This document shows, one piece after another, positions 125 through 64,000 of a stretch of DNA of 64,000 nucleotides. Both the position numbers and the translations under genes were made by a program. The notes below the pieces were generated by a model. The model was given only the letters and a program-made list of their open reading frames with translations. It searched no databases and was not told where the DNA came from. The stretch spans positions 62,001-126,000 of the forward strand of contig CP060756.1 in assembly GCA_023205875.1 (NCBI GenBank), written 5' to 3'. The stretch is from Chloropicon primus (lineage: Eukaryota). Each line of letters opens with the position of its first letter. The stretch's first letter is position 1.

Positions 125-3100
125 TTAAGAAAGGCTGAGGGCGAGGTCAGACTCAAGGACCTCGTTGTAGCTTCCACAACCCTTGAGCGCAAAGAAAGTT
201 CCCAGACCCTTCTTCACCCTAACCCTGTACTGCCTCTTGTACTCGAGGTCGTGCTGGGGGTGGAATCGGATCGTAATCTTTTGCTGCTGGGGCTGTCCGA
301 TGCCCCGGCCCCGAATCATTCCGGAGGTTGGAGCAATCTCGAACACGGGCTTGGCCTTCTCTGCGACGGTCACCCTGTTGGAGAGCCTCCTGGTGCCGGT
401 GCTGGAAGAGGAGAGCTTTCTTGGCTTGCTCTCCTCGAGCTCTGTTATGGACCACATCGCGTCAACGATAGTGGGGTTCGTCAGGGTCAGCTCTATCACC
501 TTTGGAGCATTCGGATGGACGTTATCGAAGCTGATGTTGTCCTGCGACAAGGCGATCTTTGGATACAGCAGCTTCGTCTGCATGGGGAACTCCTGGACGC
601 AGACTGTTGCGGCACCCTCCAGGACGTTCGGTCCGCTCTGCGGCAGGTACAATATCTTCAGGAAGCCGTCGATGTTCTCGAACAACCCTTCGGGCTCCGA
701 AGTCATCTTCTGCTTCTCGTACTGTAAAGTTACGTCTACATTTTCGCTGGGGGGGATGACGAACACCTTGCTCACCCCCTTCTTGTCGGTGGCCGGCTGA
801 GGATACGAGGTGACCACCGAGACGATCTTGTAGGGACCCTCGACCACGATGCGGCACATCACGGTTGTGCTCTGCAGATTGGTGAAGGCCAAGGACTTCT
901 TGTAGCTTGCGTCGTCACCAGGCACGCAGGAGTGGCACGTGAACTTCAACTGCTCCAAGCCCTGCGTGTCCAGCCTTGGCTGAATTGTGTTTGCAAGGAG
1001 GTTCAATCTCAGGCTCCCCAAGGGCTCGCAGGGAGGGGCAGCAAACGGATGGAACGAGCCAGCGAGGTTTGCTCCAACGCTCTCCTCGCTTGGTTCGCTG
1101 AATTGGATGTGTTGCTTCCCCCGGATGACGGCTTCCCACACCCTGGGCACGGTGCCAGCAAACTCGATCTCTGCGCCTTTGACCGATCCCGCGGGAATCA
1201 CCAAGCTCTTTGGCAAGAGCTTGAATGGGAGCTCGCCGTCAAGGTTTTTACCCTTCTCCTCGATCGCCACCTGAACTCCCCCATCGGCCTTTGCGACAAA
1301 GTCCACAAAGGCAGGAGTGTCCTCGTTCCCGCTGTCCGTCTCTCCCAGGAGACTGACCGTCCAATCCACCTTCATGTCGAAGGAGGAAGTGTTCGAGACC
1401 CAGAACTTCCTCTTCTCCGCGGCCGAAGCCACGCAAAGGTCGCCCCAGTTGATGCTCAGAGACCTGTTGTCGACCGTCTTCTCGACGGTATAGACTTGCG
1501 ACTGGAGGGCAAGAGGGCTGCCTATGACCCCCGCCTTCACTGGGATGGACTTGCATGGCAAGCCGCCGATCTCGCAGTGAAGGGTATCAAAATACGTTCC
1601 GCACATGTTGTTCGTGCACGTGATTTGGAACTCCGTAGAGCCCCAAGGCTCCAGAGTCGTTTGCATGGGATTGGCAAGGAAGACGACTCCCCGGTTTCCA
1701 GCTTCCCTGAGGAGAGCCTTGTCCTTATCTTGGCTCAACTTGGAGTCAATCTTCCCGATCACGCTGTCACTCAAGAGCACCGTCTCCAACGCCTTTGCCG
1801 TAAGGGTTTTCGACATCTGCACTTTCCTCTTCTTCGTCGGAACCTTGGTGACCAGGGACACCATATCGGAGGACCGGAGCATCATTTCGGACATGTTGCC
1901 CGTGCCCATGGAGTGGCTAAGCTGGTCGCTGGCAAGGATCTCTTCCTGAGAGAGTCCAAAATTCTCGAACACGATGTCCACGGGGGCTCGGATGGCACTC
2001 TGGTTGTGAATGATGAGCGCCATGGAGGCCCTCCTGCCGATTGGAAGATGTTCCCCGAAGTCTATCCTCAGCTCCTTGCCGTCGTCTTCCGAGACCTCGA
2101 TGTTGTCGTTCCCCCTGATCTCGTACTTGACGGATATTCCCTCGATCTCCGTCGTGATCTGCAAGCCCAGAGGCTCCTCCATACCCGAGAGCTCGCAAGG
2201 CAGGATCACATTGCAGGAGCCCGTCGAGCGTGGGATCATCTCGATGTCGAATTCCTCCGTCTTGCCCGGGCTGATCGTGCCCTTTTGCGGCGAAACGAGA
2301 ATTTGCAGCTTGTCGGCATCGTCCTCGCTCAGCACGTCCTCAGGCATCCAGCAGTAGTGGGACGGCAGTTGGGTCAAGTTGTGGATCTTCACCGTGCGCT
2401 CGACGGCTACGTTCAGGTACGTCACGCCCACGTCGATCTCCGTCGTTGACAAGCAGGCGTAGGGCGCGACAACGTCGGCCCTCACAGTGATCTTCTGTTG
2501 GGAGCAAACCACGTTTCCGACCATGACCTGGCAGGAAATAATCGTTCTCAGCGCTTGAGCTGATGAGCATGTGCAGGAGAGGACGAAGGCCTTGCGCTCG
2601 TTTGGCTCCAGAACTCCAGAGTCTTCAGAGAACTTGAACACCCAGTCCTTTGAAGCTCTGGAAGGCAAGTCGAACTCCTTCAGCACGAACTCGGCCTGGG
2701 CATCCGAGCAGTTTTGCAGCTCGAAGCTCGCTTCCACCTCCTTCGTCTCTTCTACCAGGCCGAAATCAATCTGTGGAGCAAGAAATTTGATCTTTGGGCC
2801 ATCCACATTGTACACCAGCCTCAGCGGAAGTTGTGGCCCGTGCTCGATGTCGTTCGCGATGGTTATATCTGTCCTCCCCAAGTCGGACGCCAGGACTGTG
2901 ATGTCGCACTCTATCGCATCTTCTGGGGGCACGAGGGCCTCTTGCGGGAAGACCTTAACGTTTGGCGGGAGGTTCTTCCACGAGAAGTGTGCGGGAGCCT
3001 TCGAATGGTTCGAGATCGTCACGTTCCTCTCGTACTGCTTGCCAAAGAGCATGGTGCCACTGAACTCGAGCAGCGCAGGAGACACCTCGATGTTCACGCC

Positions 3101-5179
3101 CTTCCCGCTACCTTCGAGGTCAAGCTCTATGACTTTGCTGAGAAGGGAGCCCTCGCTGGTGTGCGAATGCGACTCTATCATGAGCTGAGCACCGTACATG
3201 TACGTCTCGATCTCGTGGGGCTCGAAGACGAACATGAACTCGCTGTTCTCGTGTGCGCCCAAGACGCCCGACATGGGGGAGATCTGAAAGATGTTTTTGC
3301 TCTTTCCCGACCCATCCATGGAGTACCCGTTGTCCACGAGAACCCAGTGATAGGCCAGAGGGATAGGCGTGTTATTCCGGACGACGACGGTTCTCGGGTG
3401 CTTTGCACCCGGCACCACTTCGCCAAACCAAACTTTCCTTTCGAAGGGCACGAGGCCCTTTACGTTCTCCTTGTTCGAAGCCCGTTGCTTGGCCTCCTCG
3501 TCCTCGAACACTGGCTTGCCGTCAACAGATTCGAGGGTGATGTCGAGCTTCACCCCGAGTCCCACTATGGAAAAGGTCTCTATCTTGCAGTTGTCGCAGA
3601 GCATCTTGAATTTCCGAATGAAGTTGCCAGACTCTTGAGGCAAGAACCCTATCTTTATGGTGGTCTCGTCCCCCGTGTACAGCTTGAAGGACGAGGGCTC
3701 GAAGGTGAAAGGCACCAGGTCGATTGGACCACTTGTGCTGACGTCCATTTCGGTGTTCGGCCAGTCCTCCTCCGGGACCACCGTGAACGAGCCCCTTCCC
3801 CCCGAATTCAAGCACTGGAATTCCGTGACCAGGGTGTGCCCAAGCAGGCAAGGGCCGCAGTCGAAGGCCTTCGGCACCGACAAGTTCGGCGACGGCCTCC
3901 TCGCCGCGACTTGAACCTGGAAGTTGCTCACGTCCGTCTCTATCGAAAAGAAGTCGTCGTAATCCGCCAGAGAGTCTGGCATGAAGTACAGCTCGCACTT
4001 GCAGCACATTCCGGGGGCCAGGAGGTTCTTCGATCCAGGGAACTGCACGTTCGCGATGGAGAAGTACTTGGACCTGGGCGGCAAAAACCTCGCCCGCCTG
4101 CTCAGACCGCTGACATTCCTGACCCGGATCTCCATCAAGTACATCCCGCCGAGCTCGTAGTCCAGGAACTCGATGTTGTTTGGCTCCACTTTGAAGAGGG
4201 AGGGCGCCTTCTCGCTGCCCTTCTTCAAGGATTTCGGCACCTTCTTCGACTCCAAGTACCTCGGGTTCTGCGTGTAATTCAGCTTCTGCTTCATTCTTTG
4301 CAGGATCTTGACCTCCTCGTCCCACTGTGCTGCGCTCATCTTCTGTGACAGCTCCTTCAGTCTCCTCTCGGACTCTCTCGCCTTCTTGATGAGCTGCTCG
4401 TCCGTCAGACCGGAGAAGGACTTGTACGTCACCTTCCTCGGGTACTGGTCGAGCATCCTGCTTCTGACCTTCAAGTTGTTCGTGGTCTTGAGGTACCCCT
4501 TGGCCTCGTTCTCAAAGTATTCTATGGTCTTCGGGGGTGCGCTCTTTGCGTCCCTCGCCTGCAAGATGGTCTCCCACAAGGACTGCGGGTTGAGCAGGTT
4601 CATGCTCTCCAGCTTGCCCTCGCTCAGGTTGCTCGTGAGGAACGAAGGCATCTCCGGCAGCCCCGTGTCCCTCCACTGAGGCGTATAGAGCTCGTCCGCC
4701 TTGGAGAGAGCGGCGTCCTCGGCTTCTTTTGCTCGCTGCTCGGCAAGCTTCAAGTGTCCCTCGAGTTCGCACACGTAAGACACAAAGTCCTCGCAGGTCT
4801 TGTTCACCAATTGGATCTTGCCTTCGTAGATGTCCACCACCTCCTCCTCCTCCTCCTCAGGCTTGGAGGGGCTGCCCTCCCCGAGGTCGCCCTCCCCCTC
4901 CTCCTTTCCCTCGTCTCCGCTCGCTACGCTCTTCGCGGGGCTGCCCGGTCCCTTGGCAGGGCTCTCGCCTCCCTCGGCGTCGCCCTCTCCCCCCTCCCCC
5001 GCTCCCTGCTCCTCCTCCTCCGCGGCGGGCTCCGCGAAGAGGTCCGGGAAGGAGTCCACGAACACCGAGTAAATCTCTTGCGTCAGATTGCTGCTGGAGT
5101 CCAGCGACAAGGGGCCCACCCCCGGTGTCTGGACTGGAGCTTGTGCCTCCGTCCCAGTCTCCACCTCCGTCTCCGTCAT
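125..5179 (-). CDS. DLEC1: DLEC1/CFAP81-like ciliary central-apparatus protein with multiple ASH/Ig-like domains
   Basis: 1684-aa single ORF with tandem ASH-type beta domains. The segments 'LAPGMCCKCELYFMPDSLADYDD', 'CLNSGGRGSF' and 'CTNNMCGTYFDTLHC' resemble DLEC1. Confidence 0.75.
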   Translation of the reverse strand: MTETEVETGTEAQAPVQTPGVGPLSLDSSSNLTQEIYSVFVDSFPDLFAEPAAEEEEQGAGEGGEGDAEGGESPAKGPGSPAKSVASGDEGKEEGEGDLGEGSPSKPEEEEEEVVDIYEGKIQLVNKTCEDFVSYVCELEGHLKLAEQRAKEAEDAALSKADELYTPQWRDTGLPEMPSFLTSNLSEGKLESMNLLNPQSLWETILQARDAKSAPPKTIEYFENEAKGYLKTTNNLKVRSRMLDQYPRKVTYKSFSGLTDEQLIKKARESERRLKELSQKMSAAQWDEEVKILQRMKQKLNYTQNPRYLESKKVPKSLKKGSEKAPSLFKVEPNNIEFLDYELGGMYLMEIRVRNVSGLSRRARFLPPRSKYFSIANVQFPGSKNLLAPGMCCKCELYFMPDSLADYDDFFSIETDVSNFQVQVAARRPSPNLSVPKAFDCGPCLLGHTLVTEFQCLNSGGRGSFTVVPEEDWPNTEMDVSTSGPIDLVPFTFEPSSFKLYTGDETTIKIGFLPQESGNFIRKFKMLCDNCKIETFSIVGLGVKLDITLESVDGKPVFEDEEAKQRASNKENVKGLVPFERKVWFGEVVPGAKHPRTVVVRNNTPIPLAYHWVLVDNGYSMDGSGKSKNIFQISPMSGVLGAHENSEFMFVFEPHEIETYMYGAQLMIESHSHTSEGSLLSKVIELDLEGSGKGVNIEVSPALLEFSGTMLFGKQYERNVTISNHSKAPAHFSWKNLPPNVKVFPQEALVPPEDAIECDITVLASDLGRTDITIANDIEHGPQLPLRLVYNVDGPKIKFLAPQIDFGLVEETKEVEASFELQNCSDAQAEFVLKEFDLPSRASKDWVFKFSEDSGVLEPNERKAFVLSCTCSSAQALRTIISCQVMVGNVVCSQQKITVRADVVAPYACLSTTEIDVGVTYLNVAVERTVKIHNLTQLPSHYCWMPEDVLSEDDADKLQILVSPQKGTISPGKTEEFDIEMIPRSTGSCNVILPCELSGMEEPLGLQITTEIEGISVKYEIRGNDNIEVSEDDGKELRIDFGEHLPIGRRASMALIIHNQSAIRAPVDIVFENFGLSQEEILASDQLSHSMGTGNMSEMMLRSSDMVSLVTKVPTKKRKVQMSKTLTAKALETVLLSDSVIGKIDSKLSQDKDKALLREAGNRGVVFLANPMQTTLEPWGSTEFQITCTNNMCGTYFDTLHCEIGGLPCKSIPVKAGVIGSPLALQSQVYTVEKTVDNRSLSINWGDLCVASAAEKRKFWVSNTSSFDMKVDWTVSLLGETDSGNEDTPAFVDFVAKADGGVQVAIEEKGKNLDGELPFKLLPKSLVIPAGSVKGAEIEFAGTVPRVWEAVIRGKQHIQFSEPSEESVGANLAGSFHPFAAPPCEPLGSLRLNLLANTIQPRLDTQGLEQLKFTCHSCVPGDDASYKKSLAFTNLQSTTVMCRIVVEGPYKIVSVVTSYPQPATDKKGVSKVFVIPPSENVDVTLQYEKQKMTSEPEGLFENIDGFLKILYLPQSGPNVLEGAATVCVQEFPMQTKLLYPKIALSQDNISFDNVHPNAPKVIELTLTNPTIVDAMWSITELEESKPRKLSSSSTGTRRLSNRVTVAEKAKPVFEIAPTSGMIRGRGIGQPQQQKITIRFHPQHDLEYKRQYRVRVKKGLGTFFALKGCGSYNEVLESDLALSLS

Positions 5180-35238: not shown

Positions 35239-38200
35239 ATGAAGGGGAGGACGGTCCCGTGGGGGGGACGAAGGCGCCTTGGAGGGAGATCTAGCACATT
35301 CACGCGCGCGGTGTTGGTCCTGGCTTGCCTCTTGGTGGTCGTGAGCCCGGGGCAGGCCGTCGAAGGGGGGGAAGGGGAGGGGAGGGACGCGCTCAGGACT
35401 CAAGCACCGCCTCCAGCGCGAGCGTTGAAGCCTCAGAAGGCCCTCTCCGCGCCAACCCGCGTCGAAGGGACGGTGGGCGCGTGGTCGGATGAACTGGAGG
35501 TAAAATTCTCCCCGAGCAACGCGTGCAGGGTGAACTTCAAGGTGACTGGATTTGGCAACGCGAAACCGGAGGATGTCACCTTCGAACCGCCTTTCCTCGT
35601 CTTCGATGGAGACGTGGAGACCAGGACCTTCAAGGTGAAGAGCTCGGGGCTGGGATGGTACTCAGTCATTTACGAATTCGAGAGCGACCACGCGTTTCCA
35701 TTCGATGGTGTGAGGACGACGGTTCTGCAGGTCTTGGATAAGGCCCGAGTGTCCCTGGTTCAGCCAGGGAATTCCCAGCTCGTTCTGGGGTCCACCTCCC
35801 CGTTTTACAAGCTAAGCCTGACAAAGAATCTGAACGTGAAAGTGGTCCCCGTGGCCGAGGAACTCGTTTTCGAGCCTCGCGAGCTCTCGTTCTCGCGTTC
35901 GGCATCGCTGGCTCCTCAAGTCCAAGAGTTCAGGGTTCGAGTCCCAGGAACGTTGCCAGAGAAGCTTCGCGCGAGCGGGGACATTCACAAGTTCGAGGTG
36001 CCAGTGAACCTGGTGCTGCAGTGCAACGAGGGGGAGGAGGACGCGGCGTGTGATGTGGCCCGCTTGCACGAACCAGTGGAGTTTCTGTGGCAGATCTTGG
36101 ATTTGAACGAGCTCCGCGTGGAAGAGAAGATCGTTGGACCAATCACTGGCATACGCTTGCCCTTGTCGCTTAAGTTTCCTCAGGAAGCAATTGTCGAAAT
36201 TTACTCCAGGGAACTCGTGTTGAGCAAAAACAGGTTGGTGATCAGCAAGGAGGACGTAGGAGTGAACACTGAGCTCAGGGTGGTCGGGAGAAGGGGCACG
36301 AAGAGATCTTGCAGCGCAGCGGAGCCTTGCGTCATTCAGTATGCCGTGAAAGATGTCCAGGGTAGACTCAGCCCCAACTTTGCTCAGGGGGCAACGACAA
36401 ATTCCGGTTTTCACGGAAGCACGATCGTCCACGTCGTCGACAAACTCGAGCTGGACACGCCCAATTCCACCGTGGCCTTTGTGAATCAAACCATCGACTT
36501 GACCTTCACGTGGCGCACTGCTGTCCCTAGCGACATGGCACATCATCAGCTGGAGAACGTGGACCGCGCAAAAGGAATCGCAGGGGGAGAGAGCCTTTTC
36601 GAGATTCATTGCCTGGCCTCACCGGACGTCATGGTCGAGCCAAGCGTCCTGGTGGTCTCTGACTTGAGTCAAACGCTTGGTTTCAACATCACGCCGACGA
36701 GAGAAGGGAAGTTCGAGGTCAAGTTCAACTTGGGGGAGGGACGGTTCCAGAACCTCGTTGAGTTCAAGCCAGAACCCGTGGTGTCGATCATCGTGTACGA
36801 CTCCTTCCACGCCGAGGACTTCTCATTCGAAACAAAATACGGTTTAGGAGGGTTGGACACCGAGCTCAACATGATCCTGAGAAGGGCTTTATTCTCGCGC
36901 ATGGCCACGAAGGAGACAGCGGAGGCCCTTGGGGTTAAGCCTGTCAAGGTAAGCCAGCAACGCTTCATCACCTTTCCTTCTGTTCGTTTTTCTTGGGAAC
37001 TTATCTAATTGTGCATTTCCACTCGCTTGTGTTGCATCTTCCGGAAACCTGCAGGGCATCCTGCTTTTCGGCCCGCCGGGCTGCGGAAAGACGACGGTGG
37101 CGAGGCAGATAGGAAGAATGCTCTTGACACAGGAACCCAAGGTGGTCAATGGTCCAGAAATAATCAGCAAATACCTCGGCGAAAGCGAGAACCAAGTTCG
37201 TTCCCTGTTCGCTGACGCTGAACTCGATCAGAATGAGCGAAACGTTCACCTCATCGTCTTTGATGAGATTGATGCTCTCGTGAAGCCGCGCGGCCGGGGT
37301 CAAGGAGAAGCGGCGGATCAAGTGTACGACGGAATAGTCAATACCATCTTGAGCAAAATGGATGGTATCCATAGACTGGACAACGTCCTCGTCGTGGGCA
37401 CGACCAACCGGAGGGATCTTATCGACCCAGCTCTGCTGAGACCGGGTCGGTTCGACGTTCAGGTGAACATCAAAATCCCTGATGAAGAGGGAAGGCTTCA
37501 GATCTTCCGCATCCACACGAAGAGGATGTTCACGTCGAACTTGGTCAGCAAGGACGTGGATTTGGTGAAGCTGGCCAAAATGGCACGAGCCTTCACGGGG
37601 GCGGAGATCGAAGGCGTCGTGAAATCAGCTGCCTCTTTGGCGGTGGAAGACGCTTTCAAAGCCAGTGATTCCAGTGCCACGACAATCGATCGAAACCGAA
37701 TTCAGCTGACTCAGGAGCACTTCGAGAAGGCGCTCAAAGACATCGAGCCCGCGAACATAGACTCCAAGGATGCTCTGGAGCAGCTGTACAGCGGCGATCT
37801 GTTCAAGTTTTCTCCAGAAATGGTTGAAGCGATTTCTCGATTCTCTCAGTCCCTTGAGTACGTCTGCGCCGACTCGGGTGGGGATGAGTCCGAGAGAAGT
37901 CACAAGGCTATCAGCATCCTCGTGCATGGGGCACCGGGGACTGGGAAAACGTCTTTCGTCTCCAGCATTCTGAGGGACAAGTACATCGACAACATCGCAA
38001 TGCTGGAAGTCCTGTCCGCGGAACTCCTCCTTCAAGAAAGCAAGAGCTCCGTGGAGCGGAAGATTCGGATCTTTGGAGATGCGTTTCGGTCCATCCTGTC
38101 CAACAAGAGCGGGGTCGGTGTCCTTGTCTTGGACGACTTGGAGGGGATCATTGAGCACGTCGACACGCAAGCCGGTTCGTACATCAATTCTAACATCTTT

Positions 38201-47453: not shown

Positions 47454-50400
47454 ATGGTGACCGCGGTGGACGTCGTGGAGGTCCGCGTCTGCGAGGCGGG
47501 GAACCTCGCGAAGATCAAGAAGGATGTGAGCTGGGAGAATTCGGGGAACTTTTTTGACTGCGTGGACTTGGAGCAGGCGTTGGACGACAGCGTGCTGTCG
47601 GTGTACGCCACGGACTCGAGCACCGGGCAGGTGGTGGGGTTCCTGGCTCTGGAGGTCAGCCCGAGCCAGGAGGACGTGGTGGAGAACGCCCCGAGGAGGG
47701 AGTGGATTGAGGGCGAGATGAAGACGCTGGGATACTCCAAGGGGTCGACCCTGTGGGTGAACGTGGCGTGCCTCTGCAGGAAGGGCGGGGACGTTCCCTT
47801 GAGGAGCATGCTCGCGTTCGCTTTCAACAAGTTCGCGCACGTGGACTCGATCGCCATGGCGGTCGTGGACAGGGACTACCTCCCGAACAAGGCCATCGGG
47901 GTGGGCATCCCAAAGATATCCAAAAACCTCGAGCTCAAGGTGAACCTGAGCTGCGTGGAGAGGAGCACCATCTGCCCCAAGCTGGTCGTCAGGCCGGCCA
48001 AGGTGGAGGACCACGACGACCTCGTCCCCGTCGTGGAGGAGATGAAGGCCAAGTTCCCGGACTTGTCTCAGCTCCCCGACTCGGTCAAGCCGGGGGAGAA
48101 GTTCGCCCTGGCACGCCTGATAGAGAACGACTCTTGGAGCGTCCTCGTGGCCACGGTGAAGGACAAGATCGTCGGAATGATGTGCCTGCAGGAGGTGGAG
48201 GACTTGCAGTACTACCAGGAGAACTTCGACTTGGAGATGTTTGACGACTTGGCCGAAGTGATCGAGGCGGAGCCGCAGCAGGCGGAGCCCAAGGAGGCCG
48301 AGGCCGCGACGGAGGGGGCCGACGGAGGCGAGGCCGGGGAGGCTTCCCCGGAAGGAGAGGGGGAAGGAGAGGGGGCCGAGGAGGGCCAGGAGGGGAGTGC
48401 TCAGGGCGAGGCGTCTCCCGCCAAGGAGGGGAGCGAGGAAGAGAAAGCCGAGGCGCAGGGAGCCGAGGGAGGCACGGAAGAGGACCAAGAAGCGGCCCAG
48501 GAGGCGAACGAGGAGGACGAGGACTTTGATTTCACCGGCGACGAGGAGGATGGGGAGGAGGAGAACGCGAACGTGGAGGAGGACGGGGAGGCGGCCCCAG
48601 AAGCCAAGAGGGAGTCTTTGGCCTTTGCGGTGAAGATGTTCTGCATGAAGGACGAGTACGCCAACCAGGCCATGGACTTCCTTCAGCCCGCTTTCGACAG
48701 CTTTCCGAACAAGGACTACTGCATAGTCTCGCTGTCCCACAACTCGAGGGTTCCAGACCTGCTCTCGTCCTTCTCCCAGGCCACTGCAGCCACCGAGAAG
48801 CTCTCTTCTGACGTCCTTTACGTGCTGCACAGGTACTCCCTGCTCACGGACTTTCAGACGGACAAGGCGGAGGCCGGGGACTACAACGAGATCCTGGACC
48901 TTCTCGGGGAGCTTGCGGAGGACAAGTCGATGCTGGAGAGCATCAACAAGGCTCTTGACACCGGCAACTTGATCAAGGCGACCTGCCAGGGTCAGATCGT
49001 GGGCGTGTGCTCGGTCGAGCCCAAGGTGAATCTTGCGGAGCTCATGACCAACTTCCAGCTCAGCGCGTTCTCTGAGACGCTCAAGTACCGGAATTACAAC
49101 TTGGGGGAGCTGACGACGTTCGTGATGAACCCCGTCTTCTCTTACCAGAAGAAGTTCTTCCTGAGCAACGTGATGAGGCTCGTCTCCAAGACCAGCCTGT
49201 GCTTCCTCCTCAGGGAGGGAAAACCGGTCGCCGATATCCTAGACGTCTTCTACCCGATCCAAAGGAGGACGGGCAAGGGAAATGGCGAGACGGACTACCT
49301 ATTGTTCTCCCTGAACCAGAGGGACGTTTACAAGGAGAAAGACCCCCTGAACGCCAGGGTGATTGTTGTGGGGGCGTCCAAGTGCGGCCTGTCCTGCTTG
49401 GAGTCCCTCCTCCAGAACCCGCAGTACCACTTCACGAACATGACCATGGTCACCGCGGACCAGGCGGTGACCAAGTTGGCCGGCGAGCACGCCTTCCTGT
49501 CGCAAGTCCGCCTGATCAGCTGCTCGGTCGTTGAGATCAACAGGGAAGAGAAGCAGGTCTTCCTCGAGGACGACACGGTCCTTTCCTACGACATTCTTGT
49601 ACTCACCTCGGGGGTGCAGGATCAGCTTGACTTTGGCATGGGCGAGGAGGCTCTTCCAGTGGTCACGGCCGCCGGCCTGAAGGATTACTTGAAGTCGAGC
49701 GAATCCAAGCCCGAGCACGCGATCGTGTACGGCGGGAGGGGGGAGGCCTTCGACGCCATGAGCGCCTTGGACGACGAGGGGGTCGAGTACACCTACGCCT
49801 CGCCGGAGACCTCGCTGAAGTCCGTGCTCGTGGAGCGGATCGCCGCCGAGGTGGAGATCGACAAGTTCCTGAGGAAGCCAACGAGGATGACCCTCCACAG
49901 CGTTTCCGCGGGGAGCGACAAATCTTTGGGCTGCTCTTTCGTGAACATGGACGGGAGCATCGTCAAGACGGAGACTTCGCTTCTCGTGCTGGCGCACACC
50001 CAGAACGTGAACTCCAACATCTTCGGCTGCCTGAACGACTCCTCCATTGTTTATGATGGCAGGCTGGTGGTGAACGGCAGCTTCTGCACCACGGACGAGT
50101 TCATCTTCGGCGGGGGAACCATGGCGAAGTTCTCCCGGTTGTACGGCGGTCTTCCCGTCGAGATGTTCAACTCGGAGGAGGTTGGCAAGATCTTGGCGGC
50201 CAACATCACGGCCAAGTGTGAGCAGGCCAACGGCACCAGGGAGCACGCCAAGGACCTGGCGGAGGTCCCCCAGTTCAAGGAGCCCGTGGGGTTCAGCTAC
50301 AGGTTGCCCCACAAGGGAACGAGCGTGACGTACATCTCGTACCCCCCCCTCAGCAACACGACCGTAGCCGTTCCCGAGGGAGGGAGACTCCTCAGGACCA

Positions 50401-50774
50401 CGAAGGATGGTCAGCTCAGCATTCTTGGGATCGACAAGAACGACGTCGTGTGTACACTATGCTTCTGCGGTCCCCACCACGCCGACGTCGACAAGATGAA
50501 GGGTCTGATGGGTCTGCACACCAACTACCTCGGCAAGAGGAACAAGGAGCTCGACAAGATCCCTTGCATCTACTCTTACCTCACAGAAACGTGGTCGGCG
50601 GCCCTGTACTCGGAACAAGTGCAGCAACTCCGACGACTGATTCTGACCCAAGGCCTGCCCAAGACCCAAAGCGGCTTGAGAAGCTCGATACACAACGGCG
50701 TCCTGGAGCTGGTGAAGGAGAACATCCAAGACTTCACGAACTACCACCTGCCGTACACCGACTCCTATTACTAA
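47454..50774 (+). CDS. CFAP61: Cilia- and flagella-associated protein 61-like
   Basis: VRPAKVEDHDDLVP, GEKFALARLIE, FPNKDYCIVSL, LYVLHRYSLL, NARVIVVGAS, LVYDGRLVV-type segment. Confidence 0.85.
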   Translation: MVTAVDVVEVRVCEAGNLAKIKKDVSWENSGNFFDCVDLEQALDDSVLSVYATDSSTGQVVGFLALEVSPSQEDVVENAPRREWIEGEMKTLGYSKGSTLWVNVACLCRKGGDVPLRSMLAFAFNKFAHVDSIAMAVVDRDYLPNKAIGVGIPKISKNLELKVNLSCVERSTICPKLVVRPAKVEDHDDLVPVVEEMKAKFPDLSQLPDSVKPGEKFALARLIENDSWSVLVATVKDKIVGMMCLQEVEDLQYYQENFDLEMFDDLAEVIEAEPQQAEPKEAEAATEGADGGEAGEASPEGEGEGEGAEEGQEGSAQGEASPAKEGSEEEKAEAQGAEGGTEEDQEAAQEANEEDEDFDFTGDEEDGEEENANVEEDGEAAPEAKRESLAFAVKMFCMKDEYANQAMDFLQPAFDSFPNKDYCIVSLSHNSRVPDLLSSFSQATAATEKLSSDVLYVLHRYSLLTDFQTDKAEAGDYNEILDLLGELAEDKSMLESINKALDTGNLIKATCQGQIVGVCSVEPKVNLAELMTNFQLSAFSETLKYRNYNLGELTTFVMNPVFSYQKKFFLSNVMRLVSKTSLCFLLREGKPVADILDVFYPIQRRTGKGNGETDYLLFSLNQRDVYKEKDPLNARVIVVGASKCGLSCLESLLQNPQYHFTNMTMVTADQAVTKLAGEHAFLSQVRLISCSVVEINREEKQVFLEDDTVLSYDILVLTSGVQDQLDFGMGEEALPVVTAAGLKDYLKSSESKPEHAIVYGGRGEAFDAMSALDDEGVEYTYASPETSLKSVLVERIAAEVEIDKFLRKPTRMTLHSVSAGSDKSLGCSFVNMDGSIVKTETSLLVLAHTQNVNSNIFGCLNDSSIVYDGRLVVNGSFCTTDEFIFGGGTMAKFSRLYGGLPVEMFNSEEVGKILAANITAKCEQANGTREHAKDLAEVPQFKEPVGFSYRLPHKGTSVTYISYPPLSNTTVAVPEGGRLLRTTKDGQLSILGIDKNDVVCTLCFCGPHHADVDKMKGLMGLHTNYLGKRNKELDKIPCIYSYLTETWSAALYSEQVQQLRRLILTQGLPKTQSGLRSSIHNGVLELVKENIQDFTNYHLPYTDSYY

Positions 50775-61115: not shown

Positions 61116-63003
61116 TCATATGTCCCTTCTACTATATCTGCAAACGCCGTTCACAAAGGTGTGGAGGACAACTGGCTTCTCTTCCACCTCAAGGAGATCG
61201 CGGTCGAGGACAACGAAGTCGCACTTCTGGCCTTTCTGCAGCCGCCCCACCAAACCCTTTGCCCCAGCCGCTTCGGCCGCGTTGCTTGTGATCGCCCGGA
61301 ACCCTTGTTCGCGGCTTACGGCCTCCTCTGGCACGTGCCTGCGTCCACTTGTGGATTCCAAGAGGCTTCCAAGAGGGTCCAGCGGCGCTACCAAAGGCCA
61401 GTCGCTTCCAAAAGCAATCTTGACCCCCCGATCGAGCATCGATTTGAATGGAAAGCTGCGACCCTTCCCCGATCTCACACTTCCTAGCTTCTCCAACATC
61501 GTCCTCGCGTCGTCCTGGATGTGGAGAGGGTTGACAACGGCGTAGATCTCGGCATCTCGGATTCTGTCCAACGCTCCCGAGCCGCTGACGTGTTGTACGT
61601 GCTCCAAGCGATTCGGGTTTTTCGACCGACTGCCAGCTGCTGACAAGATCGCGCTCGCTTCATCAACGGCAAGGTCGCCGATCGCGTGCACAATCGCTTG
61701 CAACCCCCTCCCCGTCGCATTCGCCAGCCTCTCTTGCAGCACCGCGCGATCCTCATGAATCCTTAAGCCTCTGTTGGTCGTGCCCTCGTACGGCTCGTTC
61801 ATCAGGGCGGTTTCGCTACCCAGCGAGCCGTCATAGAACTCCTTCACGCAGCCCCAGCTTAGCATCCCCAGCGAATCTCCGTTCTTCTCGACAAACGAAG
61901 CGAGGGAGTCGTACAAGTCGAGTGGCACGCACGTCTGCACTCTAAGCGTTAGCTCGTCCTGAGCTGCAATTTCCATCCACACATCAACAAGATCCGACCA
62001 GCACTCGTCCGCTGACTGAGCAAACGCGGGTGTCCCCATGTCCGAGACCATCGTCACGCCCATGCTGTTTGCGTAGGCCATTGCTTTCATGATCGAATCC
62101 TTCCTTTCCCCCTTTGATGGTTTTGGTTGGAGGCTCCTCACCATCGCGATGGCCGTGTCCGTCAGAATTCCCGTCGGGCTGCCCCCAGCGTCTCTCTCGA
62201 TCTTGCCCCCAAGCGGGTCCGGCCTTGAGGTTATGTTGGCCATTGCGAGGAGGTAGAAGTTGACAAGGGCTCTGTGGCCGTCCGCTCGAAGGATCAGCAC
62301 CGGGTTGTCGGGCGTTGCTTGGCTAATCCAACCGGCGTTTGGCATCTCTCCCAGCTTTCTCTCGTCAAAACCATAGCCTATGAGCCACGCCCCGGGTTCG
62401 AGATTCGCTGCTCGGTCGCGCACCCTCTCGATAAAGTCAGCTCTGCTGGTGGCATCACGAAGGTCCAATTGGGAGAGGAAGCTTCCTCCCATGATGAGGT
62501 GGGCGTGCGCATCCACGAGCCCGGGAAACACGTACTTCCCTTCCAGATCCACTGCCTCGATAACGGATCCCTTTAGCCTCTCACGAACACCCGCCTCCTC
62601 CCCGACATCTAGAATATCTCCCAGTGCGTTCGAGACAATCGCTCCTTTCCGCACAACTGCCTTCCCCGTGTTCAACGTGAAGTTGAAGAAGAATCTCGCG
62701 GGGTGGTCTCTCGCTTCTGGTCCTCCTCCTCCACCTCCGCCCGATCTGTGCGACACAAACACGAGGACGAGGTACGAGACGCAAGCCACCAACCAAGTTG
62801 TCCACGTCACCCACTTCGATCCCGCCATCCTCCTCCACGCACTCTGGAGCAGCACCTTATATCTCGATGACCTCAAACGTGGTCCGTTTCCGCCAAGTTC
62901 GGGTTCATTGCAAAGATCGCGAGACGAAGTTTCTCTGATGATCACACCTCCCTCGCCAACGCCCTCCTCTGTCGCGCTCAAACCGCCCCCCGAACTCGCC
63001 CCT

Positions 63004-63034
<31 letters not shown>

Positions 63035-63059
63035 CTCCAGCGCCTCGAAGTGACTCCAT
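61116..63059 (-). CDS. Amidohydrolase 3 family (YtcJ/LAF3-like)
   Basis: PGLVDAHAH, DGSLGS, HAIGD, RLEH, FGSDWP; N-terminal TM. Confidence 0.92.
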
Positions 63060-63246
63060 GAGTGTACCGAACGAAGGCTCTCTTAACTCTTGTTATGGTG
63101 TTCAGACATCAGATCAAAAACAGCACACAGAAAAGTCACGAAAGGACGGTAAGATAATCACAGTCAATACTGGAAGCACAAAGGCAAGTTCTCCTTTCCA
63201 CTGAAAGAGAGAAACACGGAGAGAACGGAGACCGGCCCCTACTTAC

Positions 63247-63380
63247 CTGTTAGTTTTCTGCAAAGGTCGTTTCACCGAGTTTGTAAGTTTCTCGGCAGGG
63301 TAATTCGGCCCTACCACGACCATTCCACCGTACATGAACGAATACTTCCGCCCACGCACGGCAGCCCGTACTAACAAACG
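63247..63380 (-). ncRNA. Candidate Fanzor omegaRNA scaffold
   Basis: Directly after the nuclease stop: a 15-bp hairpin with five G-U pairs (63328-63361), a GGTCGT/ACGACC multiloop, and a closing TGTTAGT/ACTAACA stem. Confidence 0.7.
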
Positions 63381-63399
63381 TATGTGCAACCCTGAGGAG

Positions 63400-63999
63400 T
63401 TACACACTTTTTGGTTGACGCAAGTGCTTCAGGAGGACGTTGCGTGCCCCGTTCACATCCCGACCGCACTTGAAGCCACACTTCTGGCACTTGTACACCT
63501 CTGCTCCACCCAGGTTCTTCTTGATGTGTCCGCACCTGCCACAGGTCTTGGAGGTGTACTCCTCCGTCACGATCGCCAGCTCACTGCCGTGCAAGAGCAC
63601 CTTGGAAGCCAAGAACGTTCTGAACGCATAGTGCCTCAACGTCAAGAGCGTGCGAGCCGTCTTCTTCCTGATCACTCGGCGTCTCCCGTTGTTGTTCTTC
63701 TTCACCATGTCTTGGGACTTGAACTCCGGGAGGAGGATTGTGTCGAACCTCCTGCATAGATCGTTGGCTACCTTTTTGTGAAGCTCGTTCGTCAGACCTC
63801 GAAGTTTCTCCATGCAGGCGTATTGCTGTCTCTTCAAGTCGCGGCGGTCGAGGTAAGGGAGCTTCACCTTTGGGTCTTTGCGCTCGGAAATGATCTCATC
63901 AATCCTCCAGCAGAGGTTGAACAGCCTCGCGAAGCCTCGCTCGCCCTTGGCATACTCCCCGACGCCTTCTTGCGGCGAGTACGACGTCTGAAAGGTCCT
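63400..63999 (-). CDS. Fanzor2/TnpB-like RuvC RNA-guided endonuclease, 5'-truncated by the window edge
   Basis: Frame open to the edge: RTFQTSYS (post RuvC-I), LHKKVANDL, LLPEF, HYAFR, VTEEYTSKTCGRC, CQKC, RDVNGARN. Confidence 0.92.
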   Translation of the reverse strand, partial: RTFQTSYSPQEGVGEYAKGERGFARLFNLCWRIDEIISERKDPKVKLPYLDRRDLKRQQYACMEKLRGLTNELHKKVANDLCRRFDTILLPEFKSQDMVKKNNNGRRRVIRKKTARTLLTLRHYAFRTFLASKVLLHGSELAIVTEEYTSKTCGRCGHIKKNLGGAEVYKCQKCGFKCGRDVNGARNVLLKHLRQPKSV

Positions 64000-64000
64000 G

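Follow-up and report, generated by a model that had tools for sequence, protein, structure and literature searches.

The window analyzed here is a stretch of 64,000 nucleotides of Chloropicon primus DNA (GenBank assembly GCA_023205875.1, contig CP060756.1, positions 62,001 to 126,000 of the forward strand). Its right edge cuts through a gene for an RNA-guided nuclease of the Fanzor2 type, whose family is in print as Fanzor2*. The visible coding features and the nearest host gene are as follows.

63400..64000, minus strand: 3' part of the Fanzor2* ORF, 199 visible codons plus the stop codon TAA (63402–63400), open from the window edge at 63999
63727..63729, minus strand: Pro91, at the canonical RuvC-II Glu position in TILLPEF (alignment to 9B0L and Cas12m)
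63562..63564, minus strand: Glu146, the shifted catalytic RuvC-II Glu in VTEEYTSKTC (E-x6-CxxC), equivalent to ApmFz2 Glu467 (alignment to 9B0L)
63478..63543, minus strand: CxxC...CxxC zinc finger (domain search and sequence)
63457..63459, minus strand: Asp181, the RuvC-III Asp in RDVNGARN, equivalent to ApmFz2 Asp501 (alignment to 9B0L)
61116..62828, minus strand: amidohydrolase-3 host gene in the same orientation as the element, its ATG 263 nt past the element end

The neighbors in the window are eukaryotic nuclear genes: CFAP61, a CFAP65-like gene, ribophorin I, RPN7, and LIN9. The GC3 of the Fanzor2 ORF is 0.77, inside the range of six host genes (0.68–0.90). A sequence-only reading of this DNA had placed the gene in an algal nuclear genome and had listed chimerism with a bacterial contig among the findings that would overturn its view. 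The eukaryotic neighbors and the host-like codon composition do not support chimerism, and the neighbors together with paralogues named as C. primus proteins show that this Fanzor2 is encoded by a eukaryote. The window also holds cilia-associated CFAP65-like and CFAP61 genes (128–5179 and 47454–50771) in what is a tiny green alga.

The Fanzor2 gene and its relatives

The reading frame is open to the TAA at 63400, and each motif quoted in the sequence-only reading (RTFQTSYS, TILLPEF, VTEEYTSKTC, the zinc finger, and RDVNGARN) was read directly from it. The ORF matches Pfam PF07282 (E 9e-19) and NCBIfam guided_TnpB (E 9e-19), the latter under the whole-protein cut-off because the visible ORF is a fragment. 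The best PDB sequence match is the mimivirus Fanzor2 structure 9B0L (E 5e-17). These motif and domain matches are far above chance and confirm the Fanzor2 identity. The catalytic residues of ApmFz2 are Glu467 and Asp501 (PMC11832414). Glu146 aligns with the former, and Pro91 occupies the canonical site; this is the shifted RuvC-II Glu of a Fanzor2 and agrees with the rearrangement that had been proposed. The shifted Glu of a 723-residue paralogue, P0143, is E670 and is invariant. The RuvC-I Asp had been predicted to lie just outside the window, and the paralogue alignment puts it at 64011–64009. DPG is present there in 21 of 22 paralogue proteins, P0143 included. All of DPG, the shifted Glu, and RDxN are present in 21/22. 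The sequence-only reading had described an apparently intact nuclease; for the window copy this is likely rather than proven.

Protein searches matched 163 of 674 candidates. The top four are 97–99% identical to the window ORF, and the C-terminal 199 residues are 97–100% identical to C. primus 'IS605 transposases'. The closest proteins form clusters of 46 and 12, whose listed members are named 'putative IS605 transposase [Chloropicon primus]' (40 of the 46 in the larger cluster were read and 15 listed). Full-length paralogues have about 723 residues. P0143 is identical to the window ORF over the visible 199 residues; it was handled as a paralogue, and its equation with the window locus was not accepted, since it is encoded on a contig of 1,460,551 nt, whereas the longer of the contigs that carry six of the neighboring genes measures 1,503,776 nt. 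Two further proteins, P0149 and P0152, are about 58% identical and are encoded on long contigs. Earlier work counted 25 'IS605-like transposases' in the mostly diploid C. primus genome (PMC6731263). The family has been published under the name Fanzor2* as a non-autonomous element with terminal inverted repeats (TIRs), a variable 5-nt target site duplication (TSD), no TnpA, and an unidentified partner (PMC10711439; bioRxiv 10.1101/2023.08.09.552727). The window copy belongs to this same multi-copy, nuclear family by its 97–100% identity over 199 residues. The nuclease itself is not new, because the family had already been described.

The AlphaFold model of P0143 has a mean pLDDT of 79.4, with values below 50 over most of residues 1–173. 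Its best Foldseek match is 9B0L (E 1e-19), and there is no Fanzor1 among the matches listed. The modeled structure is a compact TnpB-like fold nearer Fanzor2 than Fanzor1. Residues 70–175 contain disordered, lysine-rich repeats whose number differs from one paralogue to another; they are probable nuclear localization signals. ApmFz2 shares the shifted Glu and a disordered basic N terminus (PMC11832414), although the N terminus of the Chloropicon paralogue is longer.

The sequence-only reading had proposed placing the protein in a phylogeny. A tree of 50 chosen sequences, built without a Fanzor1 outgroup, places it in a clade of marine relatives (100/99), and the sister clade (98/90) holds the TnpA-bearing loci L001 and L002. 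These IS607-type relatives, like cyanobacterial loci of the pro-Fanzor/Fanzor2 group, carry a serine-recombinase TnpA. The closest relatives with DNA are L001, L002, and L003 (39–43% identity), IS607-type loci whose Fanzor gene overlaps a serine-recombinase-like ORF. A Klebsormidium protein, P0047, is annotated as a resolvase-Fanzor fusion; two genes of an IS607 element may have been joined in this model. A resolvase domain was not found in P0143. Close DNA copies were not found among the best 80 metagenome loci (≤48% identical) or the best 80 loci of prokaryotic genomes (≤42%). Scanning viral sequences with P0143 and with two end motifs gave no match, and neither a second copy nor a second TIR was found within the 64-kb window.

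The DNA end and the predicted scaffold end

The 3' region downstream of the stop codon contains two distinct ends, and the features in it are given below.

63247..63452, minus strand: predicted omegaRNA scaffold, probably overlapping the ORF end, with an uncertain 5' end (folding z -3.5 for 63402–63247 and -3.1 for 63452–63247; no variant rows in 63247–63402)
63371..63375, minus strand: GTTAG, 5' strand of a conserved 5-bp scaffold-end helix or pseudoknot (alignment of relatives and folding)
63247..63262, minus strand: ancestral IS607-type right-end motif with the 3' helix strand CTAAC (63253–63249), which is also the exon end (PWM)
63241..63246, minus strand: 5' splice donor GTAAGT, at which RNA-like contigs break
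63089..63246, minus strand: 158-nt GT-AG intron containing the newer transposon right end; the spliced form was seen for another copy
63091..63105, minus strand: right terminus of the element, ending in TAACA, uncertain by 2 nt
63086..63090, minus strand: predicted 5-nt TSD (sequence, with the 5-nt TSD of PMC10711439, bioRxiv version), the first two bases of which, AG (63090–63089), are the would-be splice acceptor
63069..63088, minus strand: host flank, the predicted guide segment after splicing (from contigs, PWM, and sequence)

Contigs of four of the 21 listed runs, each from a different study, were compared. X1 is DNA-like, and X3, X4, and X6 are RNA-like, an RNA status guessed by the tool. 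Loose ends lie at 63087–63091 in X1, X3, and X4, and X1 has a depth jump there. Because varied flanks join at these positions, we place the end of the element in TAACA at about 63091. The fixed right end with variable flanks in three runs, together with the protein clusters of 46 and 12, shows a multi-copy element. AG directly follows the terminus in five of the eight end-spanning contigs listed, as in the window copy, and is missing from the other three; this count is biased toward copies that resemble the window copy.

The visible terminus reads TGT..ACA. This terminus is reported for IS481EU, one of the integrase-type transposons, as are Ginger2/TDD, and the 4–5 bp TSD reported for Ginger2 fits the 5-bp TSD of the Fanzor2* element (PMC10045372). 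No autonomous partner of the element was found in the window, among the proteins of neighbors and paralogues, or in the viral scans, and the Ginger2- or IS481-like superfamily of the partner is therefore only a lead.

The scaffold end was located by comparison with relatives. From 240 related loci, 234 had a locatable stop codon, and in 109 the right end could be mapped from copies with different flanks. These 109 fall into 26 families, and 93 of them have a TnpA-like match upstream. Their right-end consensus is AGCGTAAATGTATCAG. A PWM was built from the 26 families with the window left out of training, and the 16-mer ending at 63247 ranks sixth of 127,970 positions. At the true DNA terminus the ranks are 22,706 or worse (63088–63091), with 63089 at 37,416. 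When the shared CAG columns are removed and only the first 13 are scored, 63247 is second of 2,233 CAG sites and first of 159 CAG/GT sites.

The relatives also share a helix at the scaffold end. An exact partner for positions -7..-3 lies upstream in 16 of the 18 well-scoring families (2.0 expected) and in 22/26 overall (3.0 expected). This register was picked after the alignment had been viewed; three other registers gave 1, 4, and 0 of 18, and a 6-nt partner test at -7..-2, made before the register was seen, gave 1/18. Across 33 chosen aligned relatives, pairing of the helix is complete (100%) and 18 two-sided changes occur in it, a result reached by none of 500 shuffles. The window keeps the helix as GTTAG/CTAAC with two two-sided changes relative to the commonest pairs, and the minimum-energy fold of the window RNA forms it unprompted. 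Taken alone, the window helix partner is weak (shuffle p 0.165). The 7–8-bp complementarity at the exon end is likewise insignificant alone, as about nine other position clusters in 63010–63400, a CT repeat aside, match it. A pseudoknot beside the guide has been described as required in an IS607 TnpB. One is also seen in ApmFz2, where it closes the scaffold next to the guide (PMC11832414), and the same arrangement is predicted for Chloropicon.

The segment from stop codon to donor folds better than its shuffles (z -3.5, 0/200), and the intron part is unstructured (z +0.84). Variant rows, not all of them independent, number 0 in 63247–63402, 7 in 63091–63246, and 22 in the ORF. A scaffold lying inside the intron, in the manner of an intronic snoRNA, was considered and rejected, the intron part being unstructured and variable. 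A covariance model of the 33 relatives gave no match at the window scaffold (E<=10), and it missed the closer relatives L001, L002, and L004 as well. An Rfam search of 62800–64000 gave no match.

In the IS607 relatives the scaffold end is the DNA end and lies 9–119 nt past the stop codon in most mapped loci. The right-end motif and the -7..-3 helix are common to the window and these wider relatives (the ends of L001 and L002 themselves are outside the mapped set). In the window, by contrast, the scaffold end lies 156 nt inside another terminus and is followed by GTAAGT; GT follows only 10 of the 109 relative ends. The sequence-only reading had called the nuclease IS607-TnpB-like, which needs correcting as regards the element: it is published as a TIR element with a 5-nt TSD and no TnpA, and its DNA end (~63091) differs from its scaffold end (63247). 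Fanzor2* thus appears to work like an IS607 Fanzor2 OMEGA system, yet it is no IS607 element, because the two ends differ. In L206, L211, L212, L215, and L216, two successive upstream helix-strand motifs occur, GATTC followed by GATAC, pointing to a right end that is in tandem or has been replaced.

Splicing at the predicted scaffold end

The surprising feature of the 3' non-coding region is a splice donor on the predicted scaffold end. The site reads CAG/GTAAGT, and CAGGTAAGT occurs nowhere else in the window on either strand. In X3, X4, and X6, which come from three studies, the main contigs start at 63247, 63247, and 63246, respectively. Foreign sequence is joined at 63245–63247 in X4 and X6 contigs, and the sequence joined in X6 is the flank that X3 shows right after the terminus and AG. 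No loose end was seen at 63245–63247 in the DNA-like X1 among the 17 of 20 loose-end rows listed. A GT donor, an AG acceptor, and a joined product absent from the DNA are the marks of a U2 intron, and all three were found for the family. These data show that transcripts of the family are spliced at the donor on the predicted scaffold end, as seen for another copy. Both the spliced and the unspliced forms were found for one junction only, and two of the three junction sequences are without a mapped acceptor.

At the window locus no splice joint was seen in the contigs of X1, X3, X4, and X6. The window copy differs from the X1, X3, and X4 contigs at three intron positions (63152–63155), and the scaffold part is unchanged. 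Because all contigs carry another base at 63155, the window copy may be absent from these four runs. Two internal AGs on the minus strand, 63201 and 63170, are pyrimidine-rich and look like better acceptors than the terminal AG; no contig joint lies at either.

Proposed guide-RNA assembly and its alternatives

Transcripts are spliced exactly at the predicted scaffold end; therefore, the spliceosome likely excises the transposon end of 156 nt, fusing scaffold and host flank into a predicted guide RNA aimed at the empty allele. On balance we also lean toward the fuller account, in which the old IS607 right end supplies the intron donor and the insertion site supplies the acceptor, so that the transposase-binding end would be deleted from the RNA and the nuclease of each copy would be directed to the empty site of that copy. 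In unspliced RNA, the scaffold would be followed by bases that are identical in every copy and match the element alone, which counts for the model. Where a copy has no AG at the junction, splicing would use a more distant acceptor and produce guides to sequence present in both alleles, which counts against it.

The events may be ordered as follows. An IS607 Fanzor2 cassette would have been taken over by a TIR transposon, so that its old right end came to lie 156 nt inward of the new one; such a capture of Fanzor2 has already been published (PMC10711439). Transcription would run past the element end into host DNA, as seen for the family. The intron, which starts with GTAAGT at 63246 and stops in an AG that coincides with the element end or lies past it, would then be spliced out, as one contig pair and the breakpoints in three studies indicate at the family level. 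The spliced RNA would restore scaffold-AG-flank, the layout of the IS607 relatives, and would act as a guide RNA with the first 15–20 flank bases as spacer (63088–63069 in the window copy). From what is known of TnpB and Fanzor biology, the Fanzor is predicted to bind and trim the RNA and to cut the empty site by a TAM that ends in AG; in the diploid alga the filled homologue would then be the template for repair, and the element would be copied (review PMC13565253). The model further predicts that this TAM excludes CAG and AAG, the contexts of filled sites. Left ends mapped in AG-ending relatives gave TAG or AAG in several loci of the L043 family, which are too distant and noisy to fix the TAM.

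The main rival is an unspliced long scaffold. The functional omegaRNA would be about 360 nt long and unspliced, with the TIR and a portion of the TSD in it, and splicing would be optional or regulatory, giving the same guide or tuning the mRNA. We regard this as unlikely, although it has a published basis: the TIRs and TSDs of Fanzor2*s are proposed to appear as part of the scaffold (PMC10711439), whereas our reading ends the scaffold at 63247. The ApmFz2 omegaRNA is 247 nt with long flexible stems (PMC11832414), and X3 and X4 have unspliced contigs. The unspliced RNA can also pair TAACA, followed by AG, with 63376–63372, a 5-bp helix in the same -7..-3 register at the AG end. Because a similar helix can form there, splicing may be dispensable. 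Against this reading, the terminus is without the right-end motif, the extra 156 nt are unstructured and variable, and a perfect donor lies exactly on the old end, where the main RNA-like contigs stop.

A second alternative, to which we give still less weight, takes the splice as incidental or as serving mRNA expression or host tolerance, for instance through a 3' UTR intron or read-through to a host exon. The guide system would then be vestigial and the element spread by a trans-acting transposase alone. The two junction sequences without a mapped acceptor are consistent with this, as are the gene models P0121 and P0146, which fuse copies to downstream host ORFs. No published activity for the C. 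primus Fanzor2* was found in the literature searched, and a native Chlamydomonas Fanzor has been described as lacking cleavage in vitro. A vestigial system fits poorly with the catalytic motifs kept in 21/22 paralogues, and with a scaffold that is free of variant rows, keeps a covarying helix, and has the donor on its last base.

It is very improbable that the joins at 63247 arose at the DNA level, in a subfamily or strain whose elements still end at the IS607 end and lack the last 156 nt. In favor of such an origin, X3, X4, and X6 are RNA-like by a guess, the organism label of X3 differs from those of X4 and X6, and the absence of an X1 break rests on 17 of 20 rows. Against it, GT and AG mark the exact limits of the missing segment, and the same flank occurs with and without that segment. 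The unique DNA at 62400–62990, which has even coverage in X1, has hardly any in X3 and X6, and the X1 loose ends listed lie at the TIR end, with none at 63245–63247.

Assembly of the guide by splicing has partial counterparts in known systems. ApmFz2 belongs to a viral element, and no splicing step is mentioned in the available text of PMC11832414. In IStrons an IS607 TnpB-family RNA is both spliced and a right-end guide, and there group I splicing opposes guide function (bioRxiv 10.1101/2023.11.20.567912), whereas in Chloropicon the removal of a spliceosomal intron would bring scaffold and guide together. No group I intron spans the Chloropicon element, as judged by the Rfam search, and its splice sites are spliceosomal and internal. 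Introners resemble it in that the 5' splice site is part of the transposon and the 3' site is recruited from the place of insertion; they splice the whole element from a host mRNA, and here only the terminal 156 nt would be removed from the element's own transcript (PMC9860276). The words 'splic' and 'intron' are absent from the journal main text of PMC10711439, and 'splic' is absent from the text of its supplement, figures aside. No report of a spliced Fanzor guide was found in the literature searched, a body of text without most subscription papers, Repbase, figures, and bioRxiv supplements, and an earlier description is possible. The nuclease family is known, and its proposed mode of guide-RNA assembly is probably unreported.

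The model bears on how Fanzor guide RNAs are made in eukaryotes and on how a Fanzor survives capture by a transposon whose ends part the scaffold from the flank. In the published solution the scaffold absorbs the TIR and TSD; the window locus points to a second one, RNA splicing. If true, it would turn the IStron conflict around and give OMEGA systems a new route for switching transposon partners. The alga can be cultured and has about 25 copies, which makes the model directly testable. The likely scaffold boundary for assays is 63247, not 63091, and a guide built at the DNA end could yield a false negative.

Splicing of read-through transcripts may also affect host genes. The amidohydrolase ATG is 263 nt from the element end and co-oriented with it, so that read-through could reach or alter the gene; no joint between the element transcript and this gene was seen in the contigs compared at this locus. 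An intron 153 nt past the stop codon could send the mRNA to nonsense-mediated decay. In three gene models of other copies, outside the window (P0121, P0004, and P0146), the Fanzor C terminus is fused to downstream host ORFs, one of which encodes a SET-domain protein (P0122). The fused models may be predictor artefacts or may reflect read-through splicing into host genes.
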